From NCBI GenBank assembly GCA_037301995.1, contig JAXVOW010000302.1, positions 8 through 64,007 of the forward strand: a stretch of DNA of 64,000 nucleotides. Reading direction: 5' to 3'. The stretch's first letter is position 1. Every line of letters begins with the position of its first letter. The translations under genes and the position numbers were made by a program. The DNA is from a bacterium. GTDB taxonomy: Bacteria; Bacillota; Clostridia; Lachnospirales; Lachnospiraceae. A model generated the notes under the pieces. It ran no database searches and was not told the origin of the DNA. It worked only from the letters and a program-made list of their open reading frames with translations. Positions 1 to 64,000 of the stretch are shown here, piece by piece.

Positions 1-2422
1 CCATTCCCACCAGTCTCACAACAAACGCCATCACCCAGGCAAGCACGCACTGTTCCACCACAATTGCCACTGCCCATTTACCTCCAAGCTCCCTCTTAAT
101 AGAAGATACGGCAGCAACACACGGCGTATACAGCAGACAAAATACCAAAAGGGAAGCCGCAGCCAACGGTGTCAGACATGCCAAAAGATTTTCTGTTGTT
201 CCAAACAGGACAGACAACGTAGAGACTACGCTTTCCTTTGCCATAAAGCCTGCAATCAGAGACGTAGAAATCCTCCAATCACCAAATCCCAGCGGTGCAA
301 ATACCGGCGCAATCAGTCCCGCTGCCACCGCCAGAATACTGTCCTGGGAATCCGTTACCATATTTAAATGTAAATCAAAGGTCTGTAAAAACCATATTAC
401 AATAGTGGCAATAAAAATCACCGTAAACGCCCTCTGCAAAAAATCCTTTGCCTTATCCCACAAAAGCTGTGCCACATTTTTTGCCCCAGGCAGACGGTAA
501 TTGGGAAGCTCCATAACAAAAGGAACCGCTTCCCCCTTAAACATAGTCGCCCTGGAAACCAGTGCCACTAAAATTCCCACTACAATTCCGGTAAAATACA
601 GTCCTACCATAATCAACCCGCTATACTTTGGGAAAAAAGCAGCGGTAAAAAATCCATAGATTGGAAGCTTTGCCGTACAGCTCATAAACGGTGTTAAAAT
701 AATCGTCATCTTGCGGTCTCGTTCCGACGGCAGGGTACGGCTTGCCATAACTCCGGGCACCGTACAACCAAATCCAATCAGCATAGGTACGATACTCCGC
801 CCTGAAAGTCCAATCTTACGGAGCAGCTTATCCATAACAAAAGCAACTCTTGCCATATACCCGCTGTCCTCTAACAGGGACAGAAAAAAGAACAAGGTTA
901 CGATAATCGGAAGAAAGCTTAACACACTTCCCACACCATTAAAAATTCCGTCAATTATCAGTGAATGCAATACCTCATTGACATGCCACGCTGTAAGCGC
1001 CCTGTCCGTAACACCGCCAAGCCAGTCGATACCGGATTCCAGCAGTCCCTGAAGCCATGCACCAATGACATTAAATGTCAGGAAAAACACCAGTGCCATA
1101 ATAACGGCAAATGCCGGAATTGCAGTATATTTTCCTGTCAGCACTTTATCAATTTTACGGCTTCTCTCATGCTCTTTCGTCTCCCGCGGTTTCACCACAG
1201 TTTCTTCTACAAGCTTTTTTATAAATACAAACCGCATATCCGCAATGGCTGCCGCCCGGTCAAGTCCTCTCTCCTCTTCCATCTGGCATATGATATGCTC
1301 TATCATTTCCTGTTCATTCTGGCTAAGCTTTAATGCCTCTAATACCAGCGGGTCACCCTCCACCAGCTTGCTTGCAGCAAACCGCACAGGGATTCCAGCT
1401 GCCACCGCATGGTCTTCAATCAGATGAATAATACCGTGCAGACAACGGTGTACCGCTCCACCATTGTCATCCTTATCGCAAAAATCTATCCGTCCCGGCC
1501 GTTCCTGATACTGTGCCACATGCAGAGCATGGCTTACCAGCTCATCTATACCTTCGTTTTTTGCTGCAGAAATGGGAACCACCGGAATCCCCAGCATTTC
1601 CTCCAGCTCATTGATATATACCGAACCGCCATTTCCCCGCACCTCATCCATCATATTAAGCGCCAGCACCATTGGTACATCCAGCTCCATTAACTGCATG
1701 GTAAGGTATAAATTTCTCTCGATATTGGTTGCATCCGCAATATTAATAATTCCTGTGGGCTTTTCCTTTATAATAAACTCCCTTGTCACAATCTCTTCAC
1801 TGCTGTATGGAGACATGGAATAAATTCCCGGCAAATCCGTAACCAATGTGTTCTGGTTTCCCCGAATGGAACCACTCTTCTGCTCCACCGTCACGCCGGG
1901 AAAATTGCCTACATGCTGATTTGCCCCGGTTAACTGGTTAAACAGTGTAGTCTTTCCACAATTCTGGTTACCTGCCAAAGCAAAGGTCAGCTTTGTTCCC
2001 TTGGGCAGCGGATTCTCATCTGCCTTCACATGATATTTTCCACCCTCGCCAAGACCCGGATGCTCTTGGCGATGAGCCCGCTTTTCTTTACCATTTATTC
2101 TGTTTTTTCCGTTCCGCTTTCTATTATCTGTCTGGGAAACAGTCTCTTTTCCCTCTGCTGTCCCCTCTAAATCTCCTGCCTCGCTACTTCCGGAAGCCTT
2201 CACCGGTTCCACCTCTATCCTGGCTGCGTCTGCCAGACGAAGGGTCAGCTCATATCCATGTATGCGCAATTCCATGGGGTCTCCCATAGGCGCGTATTTC
2301 ACAAGGGTAACCTCTGCCCCCGGTATGACACCCATGTCCAGAAAATGCTGCCTTAAGGAGCCCTCTCCTCCAACAACCGTCACCACCGCAGTGTTTCCCA
2401 ATTCCAGTTCCTTTAATGTCAT
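1..2422 (-). CDS. feoB: FeoA-FeoB fusion ferrous iron transporter; C-terminus runs off the left edge, so it is absent from the ORF track
   Basis: Manual reverse translation from the ATG at 2422-2420 gives MTLKELELGNTAVVTVVGGEGSLRQHFLDMGVIPGAEVTLVKYAPMG (FeoA-like). A FeoB G1 P-loop follows: LAGNQNCGKTTLFNQLTGANQHVGNFPGVTVEQK (about 1990-1880). The frame is still open at nt 1 (..VEQCVLAWVMAFVVRLVGM). Confidence 0.85.
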   Translation of the reverse strand, partial: MTLKELELGNTAVVTVVGGEGSLRQHFLDMGVIPGAEVTLVKYAPMGDPMELRIHGYELTLRLADAARIEVEPVKASGSSEAGDLEGTAEGKETVSQTDNRKRNGKNRINGKEKRAHRQEHPGLGEGGKYHVKADENPLPKGTKLTFALAGNQNCGKTTLFNQLTGANQHVGNFPGVTVEQKSGSIRGNQNTLVTDLPGIYSMSPYSSEEIVTREFIIKEKPTGIINIADATNIERNLYLTMQLMELDVPMVLALNMMDEVRGNGGSVYINELEEMLGIPVVPISAAKNEGIDELVSHALHVAQYQERPGRIDFCDKDDNGGAVHRCLHGIIHLIEDHAVAAGIPVRFAASKLVEGDPLVLEALKLSQNEQEMIEHIICQMEEERGLDRAAAIADMRFVFIKKLVEETVVKPRETKEHERSRKIDKVLTGKYTAIPAFAVIMALVFFLTFNVIGAWLQGLLESGIDWLGGVTDRALTAWHVNEVLHSLIIDGIFNGVGSVLSFLPIIVTLFFFLSLLEDSGYMARVAFVMDKLLRKIGLSGRSIVPMLIGFGCTVPGVMASRTLPSERDRKMTIILTPFMSCTAKLPIYGFFTAAFFPKYSGLIMVGLYFTGIVVGILVALVSRATMFKGEAVPFVMELPNYRLPGAKNVAQLLWDKAKDFLQRAFTVIFIATIVIWFLQTFDLHLNMVTDSQDSILAVAAGLIAPVFAPLGFGDWRISTSLIAGFMAKESVVSTLSVLFGTTENLLACLTPLAAASLLVFCLLYTPCVAAVSSIKRELGGKWAVAIVVEQCVLAWVMAFVVRLVGM

Positions 2423-4050: not shown

Positions 4051-4926
4051 ATGCACACATTATTTGAAGCGGCTGATACACTCAATATGCCATTTGAATG
4101 TTTTATTTTTGATACAGAAACAAACGCATTTCCCATCAGACCTCATTGGCACTATTTTGTAGAAATGATTTATATTTTAGAAGGAACAGCAGAAATGTAC
4201 GATGGAGCAGACAAATATACCGTTCCAAAGGATGCTATGATTCTTTTTCACCCAAAGGCCATCCACTCCATTTTCTCTGCCAACGGTGAACCTGTAAAAT
4301 ATGCTGTTTTGAAATTTGATGTCAACCGCCTAAGCGCCACGCCGTCTTATTCACCAAAGCTAAACAGCATCTTAAAAAATGCAAGGGAAAAAAACATGCC
4401 CGTATGCTTTGACGCAAAAGTATGCGGACACATGGAATGCAAAGATTTATTTTTAAAATGCATTGAGGAGTTAAACCAAAAAAATTACGGATATGATTTA
4501 TTAATCCAGACCTATCTGTACAATCTCATTATGAAAATCATCCGGCAATGGCAATACTCCGGCTTTTCAATAGAAAATAACCTGTTCCATCAAAATGCAC
4601 CCTATGATATCGACAGTATTACCGAATACATTGACCTTCATATCAAAGACTGCCTTCAGGTAAATGAGCTTGCCCAGAAATGTGGGATGAGCTATTCCTG
4701 CTTTGCGAAAAAATTTAAGTCCATCTACGGAATAAGCTGTAAGACATATATTGAGCGGTTTCGGATTTTTAAGGTAGAGGACTTCCTGCTTTTCACCGAT
4801 TTTGACTTGAATTATATCAGTCAGGAAACCGGCTTCTCGGACTGCAGTCATATGATTAAGAATTTTAAGAAATACCGCGATGTCACACCAAAGCAGTTCC
4901 GGTTGAGAAATAATTCTGCGATGTGA
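4051..4926 (+). CDS. AraC family transcriptional regulator (cupin N-domain plus AraC HTH), divergent from the MATE gene
   Basis: N-terminal cupin-like HWHYFVEMIYILEGTAEMY. C-terminal AraC HTH: GMSYSCFAKKFKSIYGISCKTYIERFRI...ISQETGFSDCSHMIKNFKKYRDVTPKQFR. Confidence 0.88.
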   Translation: MHTLFEAADTLNMPFECFIFDTETNAFPIRPHWHYFVEMIYILEGTAEMYDGADKYTVPKDAMILFHPKAIHSIFSANGEPVKYAVLKFDVNRLSATPSYSPKLNSILKNAREKNMPVCFDAKVCGHMECKDLFLKCIEELNQKNYGYDLLIQTYLYNLIMKIIRQWQYSGFSIENNLFHQNAPYDIDSITEYIDLHIKDCLQVNELAQKCGMSYSCFAKKFKSIYGISCKTYIERFRIFKVEDFLLFTDFDLNYISQETGFSDCSHMIKNFKKYRDVTPKQFRLRNNSAM

Positions 4927-25227: not shown

Positions 25228-25282
25228 GCTAGGAACCTCCTTAAATATTTATAACTATCACAGTGCAAGCTCGCTTTCACTA

Positions 25283-25375
25283 CGTTTCAGCCCGCTCGGG
25301 CGAAACGCCCTATACATAATAGTCAAGAACAGCCTGCACGCAGGTAAACCTGCGCAGTCCGTTCTGACTATTATG
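25283..25375 (-). ncRNA. Two strong stem-loops in the rpsD-rpoA spacer
   Basis: First stem-loop 25283-25307: cgtttc(a)gcccg-ct-cgggc-gaaacg. Second 25315-25375: arms cataatagtcaagaac/gttctgactattatg enclosing ctgcacgcagg..cctgcgcag. Confidence 0.5.
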
Positions 25376-25400
25376 TGCACTGCTAAATCGTTATCGAACA

Positions 25401-29090: not shown

Positions 29091-29353
29091 AACCTATCCT
29101 CCATAAATTTTTCGCTTCATCTCGGTGTTCGTTTCACCTACATCTCTCCGGCTTCCTCTATGAATGAACGCACCTCGATTCCGTTTCACTTCATCTCGGT
29201 GTTCGTTTCACTCACATAGCTTTCTTAGAATGCCTGTAACTGCAAGCAGTTACAGCATTCCTTCGAAAGCTGCGTTCATTCAATGCGACAAACCGCAGGG
29301 ATACAGCGTACTGTTTTCCTACGGTTTTATATAAGTTCATAATAGTAAAAATA
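29091..29353 (-). repeat. Structured 263-nt secY-adk spacer with direct and inverted repeats
   Basis: Identical 23-nt direct repeat cttcatctcggtgttcgtttcac at 29115-29137 and 29189-29211. A 12-nt inverted repeat tgaatgaacgca/tgcgttcattca (29161-29172, 29271-29282) encloses the hairpin at 29228-29260. Confidence 0.7.
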
Positions 29354-32248: not shown

Positions 32249-32788
32249 TTATTTCTTACCAGTCTTACCAACCTTGCGTCTAATCACTTCATCAGCATAC
32301 TTAATACCTTTACCCTTATAAGGCTCCGGTGCTCTCTTTTCTCTGATTTCAGCAGCATATTGGCCAACTTTTTCTTTATCAATACCTGAAACGGTGATTG
32401 TGTTACCGTCTACCTTAGACTCTAATCCTTCCGGATCCTCCATCTCTACTGGATGAGAGTAGCCTAAGTTGAGAACTAACTTCTTACCCTGCTTAGCAGC
32501 TCTGTAACCAACACCATTTACCTCTAACACTTTTGTATAACCTTCAGTTACACCGATTACCATGTTATTAATCAGGGTTCTTGTAAGACCATGTAAAGAT
32601 TTCATCTTCTTCAAATCGTTAGGTCTTGTTACAATAACCTGGTCACCCTCAAGCTTAATGTCCATTTCCGCAGGTAAAACTCTGGTCAGTGTACCCTTTG
32701 GTCCTTTTACAGTCACTTGATTATTTTCTGCAATATCAACAGTTACGCCTGCTGGTACAGCGATAGGCATTCTTCCGATACGTGACAT
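32249..32788 (-). CDS. rplF: 50S ribosomal protein L6
   Basis: [17 protein letters not shown]...GYSHPV. Confidence 0.97.
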
Positions 32789-33249
32789 GCCGTTACCTCC
32801 TTAATTATATAGGACTAATTATACAGTCCGGTTATTTGTTTATCTATCTTACTTAATTGTTTTATACTATCTTTCGCGTGATTTATAACATTTTTGTGAT
32901 AAATGTTTATCACCACGCTTTCGCATAATTCACTACATCCACTTTACTAAATTCTACCTTTCTACTAAGCTCACCTCTGGTTCGCTAAGTATTCAGGCAT
33001 CATTAAGTATCGGGATGGATTTCTCTGCCTCGTCGACTACTAAGTTCGCCTTCGGCTCACTAAGAGCGTCGACAGGGCTACGACTAAACTCAGGCTGCGC
33101 TTATCAGCTTGCCTTCGTTAAGTTCTCTGCCTTCTCCACTCCACTACCATTCGGTCTTCACCTTCAGCTCGCCCTCATGAAGTGTCGGGATGGACTTTCG
33201 CACTAACCTCAAACTGCGCCTTCAGCTTGTTTTCGTTAAGTGCTCAATG
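32789..33249 (-). repeat. 461-nt rpsH-rplF spacer made of repeat modules paralogous to the rplW-rplB spacer
   Basis: The 43-nt unit at 33195-33237 matches 38491-38533 at 41/43. cattaagtatcgggatgg (33001-33018) is identical to 38472-38489. The 41-nt module at 32914-32954 matches 38410-38450 at 35/41. Degenerate tandem copies lie in between. Confidence 0.8.
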
Positions 33250-33651
33250 TCACCATACAAACGCCAGTACTTCGCCGCCAACCTGAGCTTCACGAGCCTG
33301 CTTGTCAGTTAATACACCCTTGTTTGTAGAAATGATAGCAACACCTAAGCCGCCTAATACCTTAGGAAGCTCATCCTTGCCAGCATATACACGAAGACCT
33401 GGCTTAGAGATTCTCTTAATACCAGTAATAATCTTCTCATTTTTATCCTTACCATACTTTAAGGTAATACGGATTGTCTTAAATTTACCTTCTTCAATTA
33501 TATCAACAGCTTTGACATAACCCTCTTCTAAAAGAATGTTAGCAATTGCTTCCTTCATCTTTGAAGCAGGAATATCAACTGTATCATGTTTAGCAGTATT
33601 CGCATTGCGAATTCTAGTAAGCATATCTGCGATTGGATCTGTCATTGTCAT
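33250..33651 (-). CDS. rpsH: 30S ribosomal protein S8
   Basis: [17 protein letters not shown]. The second ATG at 33645 has better RBS spacing. Confidence 0.96.
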
Positions 33652-38298: not shown

Positions 38299-38546
38299 TT
38301 TCTTTCTCCTTTCAAATTGCATTTATTATCACGCTTGCTTGCGTATGAATTGTTATTAAGCTTTCGCACTAATCTCAAACTGCGCCTTTGGCTTGTTTTC
38401 ACTGCTCATCACGCTTTCGTTTCATTCACAGCATCCACTCTACTAAATTCGAACTTCGCTGTGCTCGTTCTCATTAAGTATCGGGATGGGCTTTCGCACT
38501 AACCTCAAACTGCGCCTTCGGCTTGTTTTCGCTAAGTGCTTAATGC
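38299..38546 (-). repeat. 248-nt rplW-rplB spacer carrying two copies of a 43-nt unit plus modules shared with the rpsH-rplF spacer
   Basis: ctttcgcactaa(t/c)ctcaaactgcgcctt(t/c)ggcttgttttc(a/g)ct at 38361-38403 and 38491-38533 (40/43). The terminal module ends 1 nt from the rplW stop codon. Confidence 0.8.
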
Positions 38547-38846
38547 CTATAGTCCTTCAAAGATTTCAATATCTTTGCTGTCCGCTGTCAGCTGAACGAT
38601 TGCCTTCTTAGACTTAGCAGTTCTTCCGTAAACCATTCCACGTCTCTTTTTCTTACCATCAAGATTCATTGTGTTTACCTTGGCAACCTTTGTTCCCTCG
38701 AACATCTTCTCAACAGCATCCTTAATCATAGTCTTATTTGCCTCCGGATGAACCTGAAATGTGTATTTCTTATCAGCCATTGCATCCATAGACTTCTCAG
38801 TAATGATAGGTTTCTGAATTACGTCATAATATTTGATATCTGCCAT
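38547..38846 (-). CDS. rplW: 50S ribosomal protein L23
   Basis: [26 protein letters not shown]. Confidence 0.96.
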
Positions 38847-40592: not shown

Positions 40593-40839
40593 AAAAAAAG
40601 CCGCCTCCTTTTCGCACTTATTTAATAGGTACGACAAGTGGTGACTGTACACTCTCCCGTGTGTGTCATATTTTGAAGCATTTTACAATATAACTTTCAC
40701 ACGTCATCTCCCCTTATGGGATGGTTATTCGTACAGTGACTTGCCGTCAGTTTCTTAACTTGACATTCGCTCCACGGAAAACCTGCCACAGCGGGCAGCA
40801 ACCTCACGCTTCATAGCTATCAATGTCACAGCAAGTGCT

Positions 40840-40986: not shown

Positions 40987-41292
40987 ACGAATGTCGCGAC
41001 CAAGATGGAGCGAAGCGGAATCGAGGTTAAAGTGACTCAATAACGTATATCATTCGTGAGTCAGGTTTGCTTACTCACATACAAGTTCTTGGGTTTGGAT
41101 ATTCATGTGGCGACACACATTTTACACTTAGCGAGGTTCGCATGGCGTACTCGTATATTATTCATCTTCTTTTATGTTTCCTATGTGCTTCATAAACAAA
41201 TATAAAGCTATATAAATGCTCACAAATACTGGTATGGTAATTGCTACTGTAATTTATTTTCATGCTGTATTCTCTCCACAACTCCAAATTTA

Positions 41293-59340: not shown

Positions 59341-59548
59341 AGGTAATTGCGAAACTCATTATTTTAAAATGCGAGTTGTGCAAATGTAACAAATTTATGT
59401 TTGTAGGACATTTGAGAACGTCAGTGCTTAGCGAGGTACTTTCGAGCTTAGCACTGTTGCGTTCTCAACCAAGTGCAAACGGTCCGAAAAACATATTTGT
59501 TACATTTGTACAACGCAGGTTCTCAAAAAATCAGTTTCGCAATTACCT
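59341..59548. mobile_element. MITE-like 208-bp palindromic element with 16-bp perfect terminal inverted repeats and a 12-bp flanking direct repeat
   Basis: TIRs aggtaattgcgaaact (59341-59356) and agtttcgcaattacct (59533-59548). Flanking direct repeat atatttgttttt at 59329-59340 and 59549-59560. Internal arms also pair (gttgtgcaaatgtaacaaat/atttgttacatttgtacaac). Confidence 0.7.
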
Positions 59549-60569
59549 ATATTTGTTTTTGCCAGAATGCAATTGCCTCGTTAATCCAGCCTTCTGCCAC
59601 CGTACCGGTTCCCAGTCCAAAGCCATGTCCCAGCCCCGGATAAGAATGAAATTCTGTGTCGATTCCCAATGCACTCATACCATCCAGCCGCCGCTTCATG
59701 GTACGCCAGCTTGCAATTCCATCATTTTCTCCAACTGTCACAAATGTCGCAGGGTCATTTTCGCTGTATTCAGTTAAGCCGGTATACTGCATGATGACTG
59801 CAGCAGGCTGTGGAAGCGCCTCGGCACCAAAGGCTGCGGTTCCATAGGAGCCAAGCCATGCCGCCATTCTCGCACCGGCACTTCCTCCCCACAGAGAATA
59901 GCCGTCGGTGTTTACCTCCAATTCTCCGGCATGTTCAAAAATATATTGAATGGCACGGGCCAGATCTTCACAGGCTGTCTGCGCACCTGGCCGGTAAATC
60001 AAGGTAAATGCGTTATATCCTTGCTTGGACAGCTCCAAAGCATGAGGAAAGCTGTCCTGCATGGCTCCCACATAGGCAAACGCCCCACCGGCATTGCAAA
60101 TGGCAAATCTTTCGCCAGGGTTCCCCTTGAAAAAGAACAAGCCTGTATCTTCTTTTGCCGGGTCAGCCGACTTTTTTTCCTCTGTATAAATGTCATAAAA
60201 AATGACGTCACCAGAGGCGGCATGCTCCCTCATATAATTTGCAATTTCCACCGTCTCCTCCGAATCTATGTTGTTATACCAGGTCAGCTGCAGCTCCCCC
60301 AGCGTGTTCCCGCTGTAATAACCGGTGTCTACCGGAAAAATCAGCCTGCCATAATCTCCAAAAACAGGATCCTGAATGACATCGGATATGGCTGTGTCAA
60401 CGGTATACGAATTACGCATACCTGCATTGACTGTATTATCCTCCTCAGCTTCTGTCCGGATAGTGTTAGATGGCATATTCTGCTTTGTTGCACCTGTATT
60501 TCCACAAGCACTGAGTATCATCATAAACAGGACTGCCAGGATTCCCATTGCAATTACCCGTTTCAACAT
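59547..60569 (-). CDS. Alpha/beta hydrolase lipoprotein (esterase/lipase fold)
   Basis: ORF 59547..60587. The start was moved to MLKRVIAMGILAVLFMMILSACG (ATG at 60569, RBS aggaggg). ICNAGGAF...LWGGSAGA (GxSxG). The TAG stop lies inside the MITE terminal repeat. Confidence 0.82.
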   Translation of the reverse strand: MLKRVIAMGILAVLFMMILSACGNTGATKQNMPSNTIRTEAEEDNTVNAGMRNSYTVDTAISDVIQDPVFGDYGRLIFPVDTGYYSGNTLGELQLTWYNNIDSEETVEIANYMREHAASGDVIFYDIYTEEKKSADPAKEDTGLFFFKGNPGERFAICNAGGAFAYVGAMQDSFPHALELSKQGYNAFTLIYRPGAQTACEDLARAIQYIFEHAGELEVNTDGYSLWGGSAGARMAAWLGSYGTAAFGAEALPQPAAVIMQYTGLTEYSENDPATFVTVGENDGIASWRTMKRRLDGMSALGIDTEFHSYPGLGHGFGLGTGTVAEGWINEAIAFWQKQI

Positions 60570-61651: not shown

Positions 61652-61929
61652 CTAAAGCGCTGCACCTATTGTAGCATATCCACTCAGATACGTATACATC
61701 ACCGGATTTGCATTCGCATACAGATACTTATGCAGGCTTACCGGGTCATAAATACTTCCCTGATAGCTGTCCATGCTGATAAAGGTTCCGGTAAACGGAT
61801 TCATATACCTTGCACGAAGGTAATATAATCCTGTATTCGCATTGTACTGTTCCCCAGTGTAGAGGAACTCGTTTTTGGTATCGGCTTCCTTCTCTAATAA
61901 GCTGCCATAGGCATCATAGCTGTAGCGGT
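61652..61929 (-). pseudogene. Orphan RHS core-end fragment (no start codon, truncated tip)
   Basis: 61691-61929 duplicates 62878-63116 (239 nt, about 6 mismatches). It encodes ..YSYDAYGSLLEKE..YYLRARYMNPFTGTFISMDSYQGSIYDPVSLHKYLYANANPVMYT, then YLSGYATIGAAL and a stop at 61652. Confidence 0.8.
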
Positions 61930-62238: not shown

Positions 62239-64000
62239 TCAATAAAAGTGTGTATCAAAATATTTTTTTAATTGATTGTAGTCCGATTTAGGACCAGTAT
62301 TTTTTGGATCATATTCCCCATATTTTTCTAAGACTCTTTTCGCAGCATCCTTACCCGACTCGTTCTTATACGGTTTTTCTCCCTTAAATCTATCTGCTAT
62401 ATCATCTTTATCTTTTCCTTTTTTAGGCTTTTTTTTCGTTTTGTACTCTTTGTCTTCATTCTGACTTTCTCCTTCTTTTTCTTTTGGAGAATTTTTTCCT
62501 TTATTTTTGCCTTTGCTTTTATCATTATTCTCAGCTTCATAAATTGCCATCCTTATCTGTTCAGCAATTGTTTCACTTGCGATACCAGCCTCATTACAGA
62601 TAATTTCTATATTATCCAGTGCATACTGCAAAATCTCAACTGCTACATCACATGCATCTATAGAATACCCCTCATTTAATGCATCATCTATAACAAGCGA
62701 CAACATAACCGTTGCTGAAAGATATGATACAGCTTCTACCGCCTTAAGTGACCATAACCGATTCAGGAGCTGCATTCCAATATTAAACATAATGGCTTCA
62801 TTCTGTGCCTCTTGTACCTCTGAACTGGTCATTACACCCATTCCTGCTACAAGAACTCCAACATACCCGCTCGGGTCCGTATACATCACCGGATTTGCAT
62901 TCGCATACAGATACTTATGCAGGCTTACCGGGTCATAAATACTTCCCTGATAGCTGTCCATGCTGATAAAGGTTCCGGTAAACGGATTCATATACCTTGC
63001 ACGAAGGTAATATAATCCTGTATTCGCATTGTACTGTTCCCCGGTGTAGAGGAACTCGTTTTCGGTATCGCCTTCCTTCTCTAATAAACTGCCGTAAGCA
63101 TCATAGCTGTAGCGGTCTGTGATTCGTCCCGCTTCGTTTGTCAGAAGCCTTGTGCTTCCATGTCCGTCATACAGATAATACCATACTTCTCCATCCTTTT
63201 CCATGGAAAGAAGCTCATCACCCCTGGTATAATAAGCGGTTTCTTTTCCCTTTTCATCCGTCTCTGCCGCCACCATGGTAAGGTCTGCACTGGTATCATT
63301 GACATAAAAGGTAGTGTCACTTTCGTTTATGGTCTTTGACAGACGGTTTCCGGCATAGTCATAGGTATAGGATTCAACCGTTACACTGCTGTCCTGCTGG
63401 ACGATTGCTTTTGTCAGATGGTTTTCCTTATCATACGTATAGTCTGCTGTCATACTGCCGGTCTGCTTTACAAGGTTTCCGTTGGCATCATAGCTGTAGA
63501 CAATATTTCCTTCCGGAGAAACTTCTGTAATCAACTGGTTTAATGCATTGTAGGTATAAATGGTTGTTCCTTCGATAACTTTGATTTCTTCCGAATCCAC
63601 ATCTGCCAGCACAGAGATATCACCTTTAACGGAAGTCTCTTTGGAAATACGGTTGCTTGCTGCATCATATGTAAATTCGTTAGTTAATCGGTTCCCATCC
63701 CTCTCTATGGTCTCTTTTACAAGACGGTTTAACCTGTCATATTTATAGGTGGTTTCCGTCTCCACACCGCTGTTTACCTCTGTGATGGTAAGACGCTCTC
63801 CTGCTTTGCCCAGCCCATAGCTGTACCGGGAAAGCTGTACACCATCTGCATTGGTCACACATTCTTCCTTTAACCGCTGGCAGGCATCATAGGTATAGGT
63901 GGCCACGTTGCCGTTTGGATAGCGGACTGCACTACGGTTTCCTAATTCGTCATACTCATATACCGTTGCTCTGCCGTTCCGGTCAATGACCCGGGTAACA
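62239..64000 (-). CDS. RHS/YD-repeat polymorphic toxin; N-terminus runs off the right edge (the track ORF 62239..63906 starts at an internal GTG)
   Basis: The reading frame stays open from 63906 to nt 64000 (..RVIDRNGRATVYEYDELGNRSAVRYPNGNVATYTYDA). It carries many YD repeats and the RHS core end YYLRARYMNPFTG...NPVMYTDPSGY, then a ~210-aa C-terminal tip. Confidence 0.88.
   Translation of the reverse strand, partial: VTRVIDRNGRATVYEYDELGNRSAVRYPNGNVATYTYDACQRLKEECVTNADGVQLSRYSYGLGKAGERLTITEVNSGVETETTYKYDRLNRLVKETIERDGNRLTNEFTYDAASNRISKETSVKGDISVLADVDSEEIKVIEGTTIYTYNALNQLITEVSPEGNIVYSYDANGNLVKQTGSMTADYTYDKENHLTKAIVQQDSSVTVESYTYDYAGNRLSKTINESDTTFYVNDTSADLTMVAAETDEKGKETAYYTRGDELLSMEKDGEVWYYLYDGHGSTRLLTNEAGRITDRYSYDAYGSLLEKEGDTENEFLYTGEQYNANTGLYYLRARYMNPFTGTFISMDSYQGSIYDPVSLHKYLYANANPVMYTDPSGYVGVLVAGMGVMTSSEVQEAQNEAIMFNIGMQLLNRLWSLKAVEAVSYLSATVMLSLVIDDALNEGYSIDACDVAVEILQYALDNIEIICNEAGIASETIAEQIRMAIYEAENNDKSKGKNKGKNSPKEKEGESQNEDKEYKTKKKPKKGKDKDDIADRFKGEKPYKNESGKDAAKRVLEKYGEYDPKNTGPKSDYNQLKKYFDTHFY

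Follow-up and report, generated by a model that had tools for sequence, protein, structure and literature searches.

The minus strand of the 64,000-nt Lachnospiraceae sequence analyzed here (contig JAXVOW010000302.1; referred to below as the window) carries the S10-spc-alpha ribosomal-protein (r-protein) cluster, in the order S10-Clostridia leader, rpsJ to rplW, rplB to rpsH, rplF to secY, adk, map, infA, and on to rpsM-rplQ. The leader upstream of rpsJ places the organism in the Clostridia (Table 1). Most junctions in this cluster measure -20 to +30 nt; the long exceptions are rplW-rplB (248 nt), rpsH-rplF (461 nt), secY-adk (263 nt), rpsJ-rplC (98 nt), rpsD-rpoA (173 nt), and the infA-rpmJ-rpsM region. 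We characterized the rpsH-rplF spacer together with the rplW-rplB spacer, with which a preliminary description of the window had reported shared sequence modules. The reading that best accounts for the 461-nt spacer is an array in which at least six copies or variants of one hairpin module follow each other head to tail.

The homology of the modules common to both spacers was confirmed, and the three matches reported previously were reproduced exactly: the best ungapped matches inside 38299-38546 were 35/41 for 32914-32954 (at 38410), 18/18 for 33001-33018 (at 38472), and 41/43 for 33195-33237 (at 38491). A repeat search across both spacers aligned 83 nt at 90% identity (33167-33249 with 38463-38545) and 51 nt at 82% (32910-32960 with 38406-38456). 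Besides, a covariance model of the hairpin (R1) found four matches in the 461-nt spacer, at 33194-33248 (65 bits), 33135-33190 (23 bits), 33075-33130 (64 bits), and 32956-32997 (31 bits), which bears out the degenerate tandem copies of the preliminary description; the rplW-rplB spacer gave three (70.7, 45.1, and 32.7 bits). The copies are too diverged, or too rich in insertions and deletions, for the arrays to be picked up by Tandem Repeats Finder. A palindrome described earlier, gtgataaa/tttatcac, is indeed present but lies at 32896-32913, one base away from the position first given for it; as an 8-bp stem it leaves a 2-nt loop, 7 bp with a 4-nt loop is more realistic, and the minimum-free-energy (MFE) fold uses another pairing at this site.

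Read on the mRNA strand, the 461-nt spacer consists of imperfect hairpins in a row, H1a, H2', M4, M5, H2 (with a nested hairpin), and H3, continued on the 3' side by an A+U-rich hairpin and then by the native rplF leader. Its predicted folding energy was -132 kcal/mol (z = -5.2, with 0 of 100 shuffles as good), versus z = -2.3 for the opposite strand; the 248-nt rplW-rplB spacer scored z = -2.6. The G+C content of the array is 0.51, against 0.36 to 0.41 in its surroundings. The array begins at 33249, abutting the rpsH stop codon TGA (33250-33252), and the rplW-rplB array begins 2 nt past a TAG stop codon. These two arrays and one further H1-like hairpin, inside a separate element at 59341-59549, make up the content of the family in the window.

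Table 1. Genes, hairpin modules, and neighboring features of the two spacers, in window coordinates (ORF, open reading frame; SD, Shine-Dalgarno sequence; R1, score with the covariance model)
Feature	Position	Strand	Details
S10-Clostridia ribosomal-protein leader (RF03136)	40741-40822		Upstream of rpsJ; Rfam cmscan, 92.5 bits
rplW	38547-38846	-	
rplW-rplB spacer	38299-38546	-	248 nt, given the likely rplB start
rplW-rplB array	38361-38541	-	H1 38491-38541, H2 38432-38490, H3 38402-38431, truncated H1b 38361-38405
Native rplB leader hairpin (candidate)	38331-38344	-	ACGC-AAGCAA-GCGU, upstream of SD 38306-38312; no Rfam match
rplB likely start	38298	-	ATG, 8 nt after AAAGGAG
rpsH	33250-33651	-	ORF
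rpsH-rplF spacer	32789-33249	-	461 nt
H1a, first hairpin module	33195-33245	-	GAGCACUUAACGAAAAC...GUUUGAGGUUAGUGCGAAAG; R1 65 bits; 41/43 to 38491-38533
H2', long hairpin	33134-33194	-	UCCAUCCCGACACUUCAUGA...GGUAGUGGAGUGGAG; diverged copy of the same hairpin type; R1 23 bits
M4, H1-type hairpin	33076-33131	-	Flanks GGCAGAGA / CGUAGCC; R1 64 bits
M5 hairpin	33031-33074	-	UGUCGACG-CUCUUAGUGA-GCC-GAA-GGC-GAACUUAGUA-GUCGACG; MFE fold
H2 hairpin	32936-33019	-	UCCAUCCCGAUACUUAAUGA...GAAUUUAGUAAAGUGGAUG; 18/18 to 38472-38489; second hairpin nested in tip
Hairpin nested in H2 tip	32955-32999	-	R1 match 32956-32997, 31 bits
H3, small GNRA-tetraloop hairpin	32910-32935	-	UAUGC-GAAA-GCGUG; within the 51-nt 82% repeat
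A+U-rich hairpin region	32876-32918	-	Contains the gtgataaa/tttatcac palindrome
Promoter-like TAGATA-17-TATAAT	32818-32846	-	10/12 matches
Native rplF leader hairpin (candidate)	32812-32829	-	GGACU-GUAUAAUU-AGUCC; loop holds TATAAT (32818-32823); no Rfam match
rplF SD	32796-32802	-	AAGGAGG
rplF	32249-32788	-	ATG at 32788
H1-like hairpin, third in window	59419-59460	+	GUGCUUAGCGAG...GAGCUUAGCAC; R1 21.3 bits, E = 0.004

One design underlies H1, H2, M4, M5, and the nested hairpin, namely an imperfect hairpin of 45 to 85 nt with a conserved asymmetric core in which 5'-CUUA-R-Y-GA is paired with GA-R-N-UUAG-3'. The core pairs are, in order, C-G, U-A, U.U, A-U, R-N, Y-R, and tandem G.A/A.G, beyond which come a 3- to 4-bp helix, a small internal loop rich in purines, a tip helix of 3 bp, and a loop that varies and has 3 to 5 nt. 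The pair beside the G.A tandem is C-G in H1 (CUUARC-GA / GA-GNUUAG) and U-A in H2 (CUUAAU-GA / GA-AUUUAG). Several modules recur in related contigs (designated here by L numbers). M4 lies directly 3' of the stop codon in L161-L163 and is also present in L004, L005, L088, L091, and L171, while M5 recurs paired with M4 in L004, L005, L161-L163, and L171. H2' forms a hairpin in the MFE fold and is missing at that position in strains L160, L162, and L163; the A+U-rich hairpin is kept in L160, L162, L163, and L139 and replaced by other sequence in L001 and L161.

The stems of the module are real. Among 63 distinct H1-type hairpins from many loci, pair 19-40 was A-U in 28 and G-C in 28, pair 18-41 was A-U in 50 and G-C in 11, and pair 13-46 was A-U in 27, G-C in 14, and G.G in 19. 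The basal pairs 6-53 and 7-52 switch too, and free stem positions covary almost purely in the Watson-Crick manner. None of 500 shuffles reached the observed covariation score, and sliding the partners against each other lowered pairing from 88% to 15 to 52%. For 23 two-hairpin units, RNAalifold predicted 26 pairs, 13 of them with compensatory changes. The nested hairpin shows an A-U to G-C double change in the rplW-rplB copy of L001, and the outer stem of H2 has been swapped whole between subfamilies (CCAUCC/GGAUGG, GGUACCUG/CAGGUACC, and UGUUCUUC/GAAGAACA). G.U combinations were not enriched at paired columns, where G.U and A.C numbered 5 versus 17 and 5 versus 7. This lack of enrichment is unlike RNAs whose fold is under selection and fits complementarity that is made or kept at the DNA level.

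The family is widely dispersed. A scan of one genome per species with a 22-mer from the 3' arm of H1 returned 10 loci, all 10 within r-protein operons and all in the sense direction (rpsH-rplF, rplW-rplB, and rpsM-rpsK, the last in a more distant Lachnospiraceae genome). This result suggested an operon-specific element, which the generic hairpin pattern ruled out as a subfamily artifact. With that pattern, a scan of metagenomes found at least 120 loci, where about one or two chance matches would be expected by a rough estimate. Among the matches listed, 27 fell in the S10/spc/alpha cluster, at six junctions (rpsH-rplF, 12; rpsM-rpsK, 8; rplW-rplB, 2; rpsN-rpsH, 2; rpsK-rpsD, 2; rpsJ-rplC, 1), and 93 fell elsewhere in about 60 contexts, including pgk-tpiA (9 loci) and, following a tRNA, the leader region of a gene for a formate/nitrite transporter (8 loci). 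Further contexts were the ZTP-like riboswitch leader of an IMP-cyclohydrolase gene, an acetolactate-synthase (ilvB-like) leader, obg, rpsG-fusA, the ileS T-box leader, tex, and the interval between tRNA and 23S rRNA (L044, 109-1639).

All copies sit between genes. The usual unit outside the species of the window is ATGTAGAGCACTTAGCGAAAGCAAGCC...GCTTGAGGTTAGTGCGAAC plus GGTACCTGGACACTTAATGA...GAATTTAGTGAAGCAGGTAC, repeated every 117 to 129 nt. Copies start at or a few bases past the upstream stop codon, and the TAG of GTAGAGCAC or TAGGCATTGAGCAC is often the stop codon itself; other copies start directly after the T-run of a terminator (...TTTTTC-ATGTAGAGCAC). A GTAG precedes the hairpin in one subfamily (ATGTAGAGCAC...) and is not found in the window copies (GCATTGAGCAC, GGCAGAGAAC). 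Orientation is strongly biased, since flanking gene pairs were co-oriented with the element at 57 loci and opposed to it at 4, at least three of the opposed cases involving what look like real genes (neighbors of pdxT, cardiolipin synthase, and leuD, as read by eye from translations). An nhmmer search gave 240 matches in 132 loci; arrays were head-to-tail, and matches on both strands occurred in only 1 of the 132.

No Rfam family matched the element at gathering or permissive thresholds in the window, the two spacers, or 23 related loci. Apart from the S10-Clostridia leader in the window, cmscan found no r-protein leader model, and none in either spacer even at E <= 10. BLAST searches against phages and plasmids gave no match. 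Scans of viral contigs gave 0, 2, and 26 matches, none of them a true copy; the 26 were conserved phage coding sequence sharing 17 to 20 nt by chance. Literature searches for Lachnospiraceae or Clostridia repeat families, and for the core sequences as text, returned nothing. Thus, the family seems undescribed, although it is common in human-gut Lachnospiraceae metagenomes.

As the preliminary description had envisaged, the rpsH-rplF junction was compared among sister genomes, and both spacer length and module order differed between strains. The sister contigs have an identical S8 or L23 protein and are 97 to 99% identical to the window across 13 kb. In these near-identical strains, the rpsH-rplF spacer measured 287, 343, 348, 349, 401, or 461 nt, and the modules were ordered H1-H2-H3 in L160, M4-M5-H2-H3 in L162 and L163, M4-M5-H2'-H2'' in L161, and H1-H2'-M4-M5-H2-H3 in the window. 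The rplW-rplB spacer measured 60, 88, 191, 248, 256, or 263 nt. The 60-nt form (L161 and L167) is an empty site, TAA-AATGTAAGA-TTCATACGC, with the native leader only; a strain with this array-free junction is 97.5% identical to the window, and the array is missing in another species too. The candidate native rplB leader hairpin is present in filled and empty alleles alike. In the 88-nt form (L166, 1601-1688), the array has been cleanly deleted from the base of the 5' arm of the first hairpin to the 3' arm of the last, leaving GCATTAA|AGCCCATCC, which suggests loss through slippage across the hairpin base.

Unit number varies as well, from 1 to 3 or more per array: L002 and L010, from one sample, have three units and one unit of 129 nt, respectively, and L108 and L109, as well as L137 and L065, differ in the number of units of 117 to 129 nt. 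In a cross-species sample chosen for carrying the element somewhere, rpsH-rplF was expanded in 21 of 22 covering loci, with a minimum of 69 nt in which a remnant was still visible, and rplW-rplB was expanded in 8 of 9, with an empty minimum of 68 nt.

The arrays also change rapidly in sequence. Between the window and five conspecific contigs, identity was 92 to 97% at four-fold degenerate sites and 96 to 99% in other intergenic regions of the operon. In the repeat arrays it was 81 to 96% of alignable columns, with 62 to 324 of 542 positions unalignable, and part of this loss of identity arose because paralogous modules were mis-paired. The arrays have thus diverged at least as fast as four-fold sites, and there is no sign of purifying selection on them.

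We therefore favor, with a probability of about 0.62, the reading that the rpsH-rplF spacer is an array of an undescribed BOX/REP-like family of small interspersed hairpin repeats in Lachnospiraceae. The spacer has the look of selfish DNA that travels in the mRNA and is tolerated, rather than of a dedicated regulator or promoter. The "tolerated mobility" raised in the preliminary description agrees with the many unrelated loci of the family and with arrays that are present, absent, or reshuffled between strains 97 to 99% identical. In contrast, the proposal that the spacer is an expanded paralogue of the rplW-rplB element is too simple, as the two spacers are separate arrays that change fast and whose modules independently stem from a repeat family dispersed in the genome.

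We infer mobility by a copying process, transcription of the arrays, and the lack of a dedicated function as follows. Copies would arrive at new intergenic sites through some copy mechanism and persist where harm is small, that is, at junctions without translational coupling, just past stop codons or terminators, and where the downstream gene retains its own leader hairpin and SD sequence. Arrays may then grow, shrink, and be reshuffled when modules recombine or slip against each other and when deletions span the bases of hairpins. Because neither spacer has a predicted intrinsic terminator in the sense direction, read-through transcription is the default expectation, and the window array is presumably transcribed within the S10-spc mRNA, where it would fold into a string of rod-like hairpins. 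Effects on mRNA processing or stability, or an uncoupling of rplF from rpsH, might follow as a by-product and are not required.

Among known systems, BOX elements of Streptococcus pneumoniae (boxA-boxB(n)-boxC) are modular interspersed intergenic repeats with a variable number of internal modules (Croucher et al. 2011, PMC3049150). They have extensive predicted RNA structure and are co-transcribed as 5' or 3' extensions of operons, some of them between a T-box leader and its operon; their copy number varies between strains, and no dedicated transposase has been proven (PMC3049150). The present family resembles BOX in its tandem 117- to 129-nt units of variable number and in copies that follow T-box and riboswitch terminators. 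It lacks a conserved terminal pair of the boxA/boxC type, since arrays start with H1 or M4 and their ends differ, and it shows a strong sense bias and enrichment in the r-protein cluster. By description, it is further set apart by its occurrence in Lachnospiraceae and by the CUUARYGA/GARNUUAG core with U.U and tandem G.A.

The repetitive extragenic palindromes (REP) and their mosaics (BIME) are imperfect palindromes in transcribed intergenic arrays past stop codons and are associated with RAYT transposases in enterobacteria and pseudomonads. REP sequences stabilize upstream mRNA, attenuate transcription, or lower upstream translation when they lie within about 15 nt of the stop codon. They typically have GTAG at the 5' end, number hundreds per genome, and flank the gene of their cognate RAYT, a Y1 transposase. 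Like them, the present repeats are short, imperfect, extragenic palindromes clustered just past stop codons. However, BIMEs alternate inverted REPs, whereas the present copies are all direct, and the present hairpins are longer than REPs, have conserved internal loops, and apparently occur in tens, not hundreds, per genome.

Correia/NEMIS of Neisseria, ERIC of enterobacteria, and EFAR of Enterococcus lie near the ends of open reading frames, are transcribed together with adjacent genes, form long hairpins, and can become targets of RNase III or RNase E (background in PMC3049150). The present repeats are likewise hairpin-forming and close to gene ends, but those families have terminal inverted repeats and target-site duplications, and the present arrays have no detectable ones. 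Terminal inverted repeats of the type seen in miniature transposable elements with inverted repeats (MITEs), with a flanking repeat, were found only in the separate element at 59341-59549. This palindromic, MITE-like element of about 209 nt (fold z = -10.7) ends in terminal inverted repeats of 17 nt that match perfectly (TAGGTAATTGCGAAACT / AGTTTCGCAATTACCTA) and is flanked by a direct repeat of 10 nt, TATTTGTTTT; its tip carries the H1-like hairpin CTTAGCGA...GAGCTTAG on the plus strand, antisense to both flanking minus-strand genes. In behavior, the nearest analogues of the family are BOX and REP/BIME, but it lacks the alternating orientation that defines BIME, the terminal inverted repeats and target-site duplication of a MITE, and the terminal modules of BOX.

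Clostridiales-1 RNA (RF01699) was rejected as the identity of the element: it scored 16.1 bits in the rplW-rplB spacer of the window, against a gathering threshold of 48, and did not recur in other spacers, so that this weak match is put down to chance. This RNA of gut Clostridia lies directly beside repeat arrays in L064, L135, L062, and L047. In L064, a true Clostridiales-1 RNA (51 bits; 1015-1178, minus strand) occupies the opposite strand between the ZTP-like riboswitch and the IMP-cyclohydrolase gene.

Several observations weigh against the selfish-repeat reading. No transposase or other mobilizing gene was identified, no genome-wide search for RAYT having been made, and filled and empty alleles (TAG-GCATTAAGCAC...GCTTAATAACAA-TTCATACGC versus TAA-AATGTAAGA-TTCATACGC) show neither a target-site duplication nor terminal inverted repeats. 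The copy number appears modest: a subfamily-biased hidden Markov model counted about one further site in every 136 kb around the sampled matches, a density that suggests perhaps tens of copies per genome. The core is conserved across species whose S8 proteins are only 74 to 85% identical, so it must be under some constraint, whether from the need to stay competent for transposition or from a binding partner in the cell. In addition, 22% of the sampled matches fall in a gene cluster that makes up about 0.5% of a genome; rpsH-rplF is filled in every conspecific strain sampled, which could mean selection and not an insertion hot spot; and the roughly 95% sense orientation, with the frequent start at a stop codon, could reflect a function at the RNA level. 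On the other side, fast local decay combined with strong conservation at the family level is the pattern of repeats that need to be recognized by their copying agent.

A function at the RNA level would make the repeat a cis-acting mRNA element, for example a signal for processing or stability or a platform to which an RNase or an RNA-binding protein binds, kept in highly expressed operons. Its copy number would tune the flanking genes, and homogenization between copies would explain the family-wide conservation. Besides the sense bias, the exact placement at stop codons, and the filled rpsH-rplF junctions (21 of 22 loci and all conspecific strains sampled), this explanation draws on the enrichment of copies near translation genes and in strongly expressed operons, with the S10/spc/alpha cluster (27 of the at least 120 listed matches), rpsG-fusA, pgk-tpiA, obg, and rRNA/tRNA neighborhoods, and on the purine-rich asymmetric core, whose tandem G.A and U.U make the sense strand fold better (z = -5.2 versus -2.3). 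We nevertheless regard it as unlikely. The rplW-rplB junction does without the array in a strain 97.5% identical and in another species, and neither number nor order of the modules is conserved. The arrays evolve at or above the rate of four-fold sites while the genuine leaders in this operon are conserved, and paired columns show no excess of G.U. Copies also run antisense to real genes in L068, L095, and L105 (identified by eye from translations), and one sits inside another palindromic element (59341-59549). An RNA-level or transcription-coupled role of any kind is likewise unlikely. In a still more speculative version, the core would be the recognition site of a cellular protein, on RNA or on the displaced non-template DNA strand, and the repeats a domesticated module tunable by copy number. 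If so, the module would set processing, stability, or translational uncoupling in the most strongly expressed Lachnospiraceae operons (r-proteins, EF-G, glycolysis, and rRNA/tRNA), and expression would be adjusted, as by a rheostat, through the variation of array length between strains. Inspection of the tandem G.A spoke against a K-turn or box C/D-like motif, which was rejected, as there is no 3-nt bulge and the G.A pairs lie within a continuous helix.

The preliminary description also suggested that the element may supply an internal promoter, TAGATA-17-TATAAT. Such a sigma-70-type promoter would give rplF and the downstream genes their own transcript. The site matches the consensus at 10 of 12 positions with 17-nt spacing (32846-32818), its -35 box is TTGATA in strain L160, and close relatives retain a GATAAAC(A/G)AATAAC stretch. 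We consider the promoter improbable, and its attribution to the element does not hold, because the site lies 3' of the array in the native leader and is no commoner than in shuffled sequence (one site in the region versus 1.4 +/- 1.1 in shuffles). The TG directly abuts TATAAT and thus falls outside the extended -10 register TGnTATAAT. Moreover, the -10 hexamer forms the loop of the rplF leader hairpin, and a start site downstream of it would leave that hairpin untranscribed. Hairpins of other sequence occupy the same position in L002, L004, L139, L090, L131, L132, and L171; across species the stem covaries (AAAACCG-UAAU-CGGUUUU and UGAGC-GAAA-GCUCA, for example), and the loop differs, being TAATCG in L002 and L010, TATTGT in L004, and GAAA in L090. 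Since the promoter-like site is outside the repeat, it would be uninformative about the element even if active.

That the modules mimic rRNA and serve as autoregulatory operators, binding S8, L6, L23, or L2 to control translation of rplF or rplB, is very improbable: the location directly upstream of rplF and rplB, the strong predicted structure, and the RNA operators evidently in use in this operon (the S10-Clostridia leader) speak for it, but the same hairpins stand beside dozens of unrelated genes, are dispensable at rplW-rplB, vary in architecture between strains, and match no Rfam leader or rRNA, their resemblance to 5S rRNA lying within shuffle scores. The conserved candidates for native leader or operator structures are instead the small hairpins before the SD sequences of rplF and rplB, outside the repeat. 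A 5S rRNA-like reading of H2 (CCCAUCCCGA..., CCGAAUGGUAGUG) was rejected by local alignment to Lachnospiraceae 5S rRNA, in which 96 of 300 shuffles scored as high as the 461-nt spacer; only the rplW-rplB spacer gave a nominal signal, from a 14-nt match that 6 of 300 shuffles equaled. An integron attC site was set aside as well: ACTTAAC agrees with RYYYAAC, but GTTRRRY is not matched by the 3' arm (GTTTAGT / GGTTAGT), the neighbors are core genes and not cassettes, and no integrase was seen.

If the spacers are arrays of selfish repeats, the long spacers in a compact, essential operon are explained by repeats that colonized the few junctions without translational coupling. The result is strain-level length polymorphism inside a widely used phylogenetic-marker locus, which matters for the assembly of genomes from metagenomes, for strain typing, and for annotation. 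Such repeats break or scaffold assemblies: runs of about 100 N inside arrays of L006 and L007 are probable assembly gaps, and L069 (1-110), where the 3' end of a 16S rRNA runs into the repeat and rplF, was probably assembled as a chimera through the repeat. The filled, empty, and reshuffled natural alleles at rplW-rplB and rpsH-rplF offer a ready test of effects on r-protein mRNA processing and stoichiometry.

Other features were observed in the window and in a related genome. The secY-adk spacer (29091-29353) is a second type of expanded spacer within the same operon. It contains a 74-nt tandem repeat (29110-29143 / 29184-29217, 91%) and, at 29218-29271, a palindrome that is almost perfect, and 29 nt of it match, in inverted orientation, the stretch 40999-41027 that lies upstream of the S10 leader; its length ranges from 69 to 326 nt, and its copy number is variable across strains and species. 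The rpsD-rpoA spacer (25228-25400; 173 nt) measures 31 to 190 nt in relatives, and the infA-rpsM region of the window is 583 nt including rpmJ. The related genome (L011) has an unannotated 343-nt rpmJ-rpsM spacer (4256-4598) and a TwoAYGGAY RNA (RF01731, 103 bits) at 422-586. Finally, a 255-nt direct repeat with 96% identity (61675-61929 / 62862-63116), its copies 1187 nt apart and a third, partial copy lying near 63463, probably represents repeated protein-coding domains.

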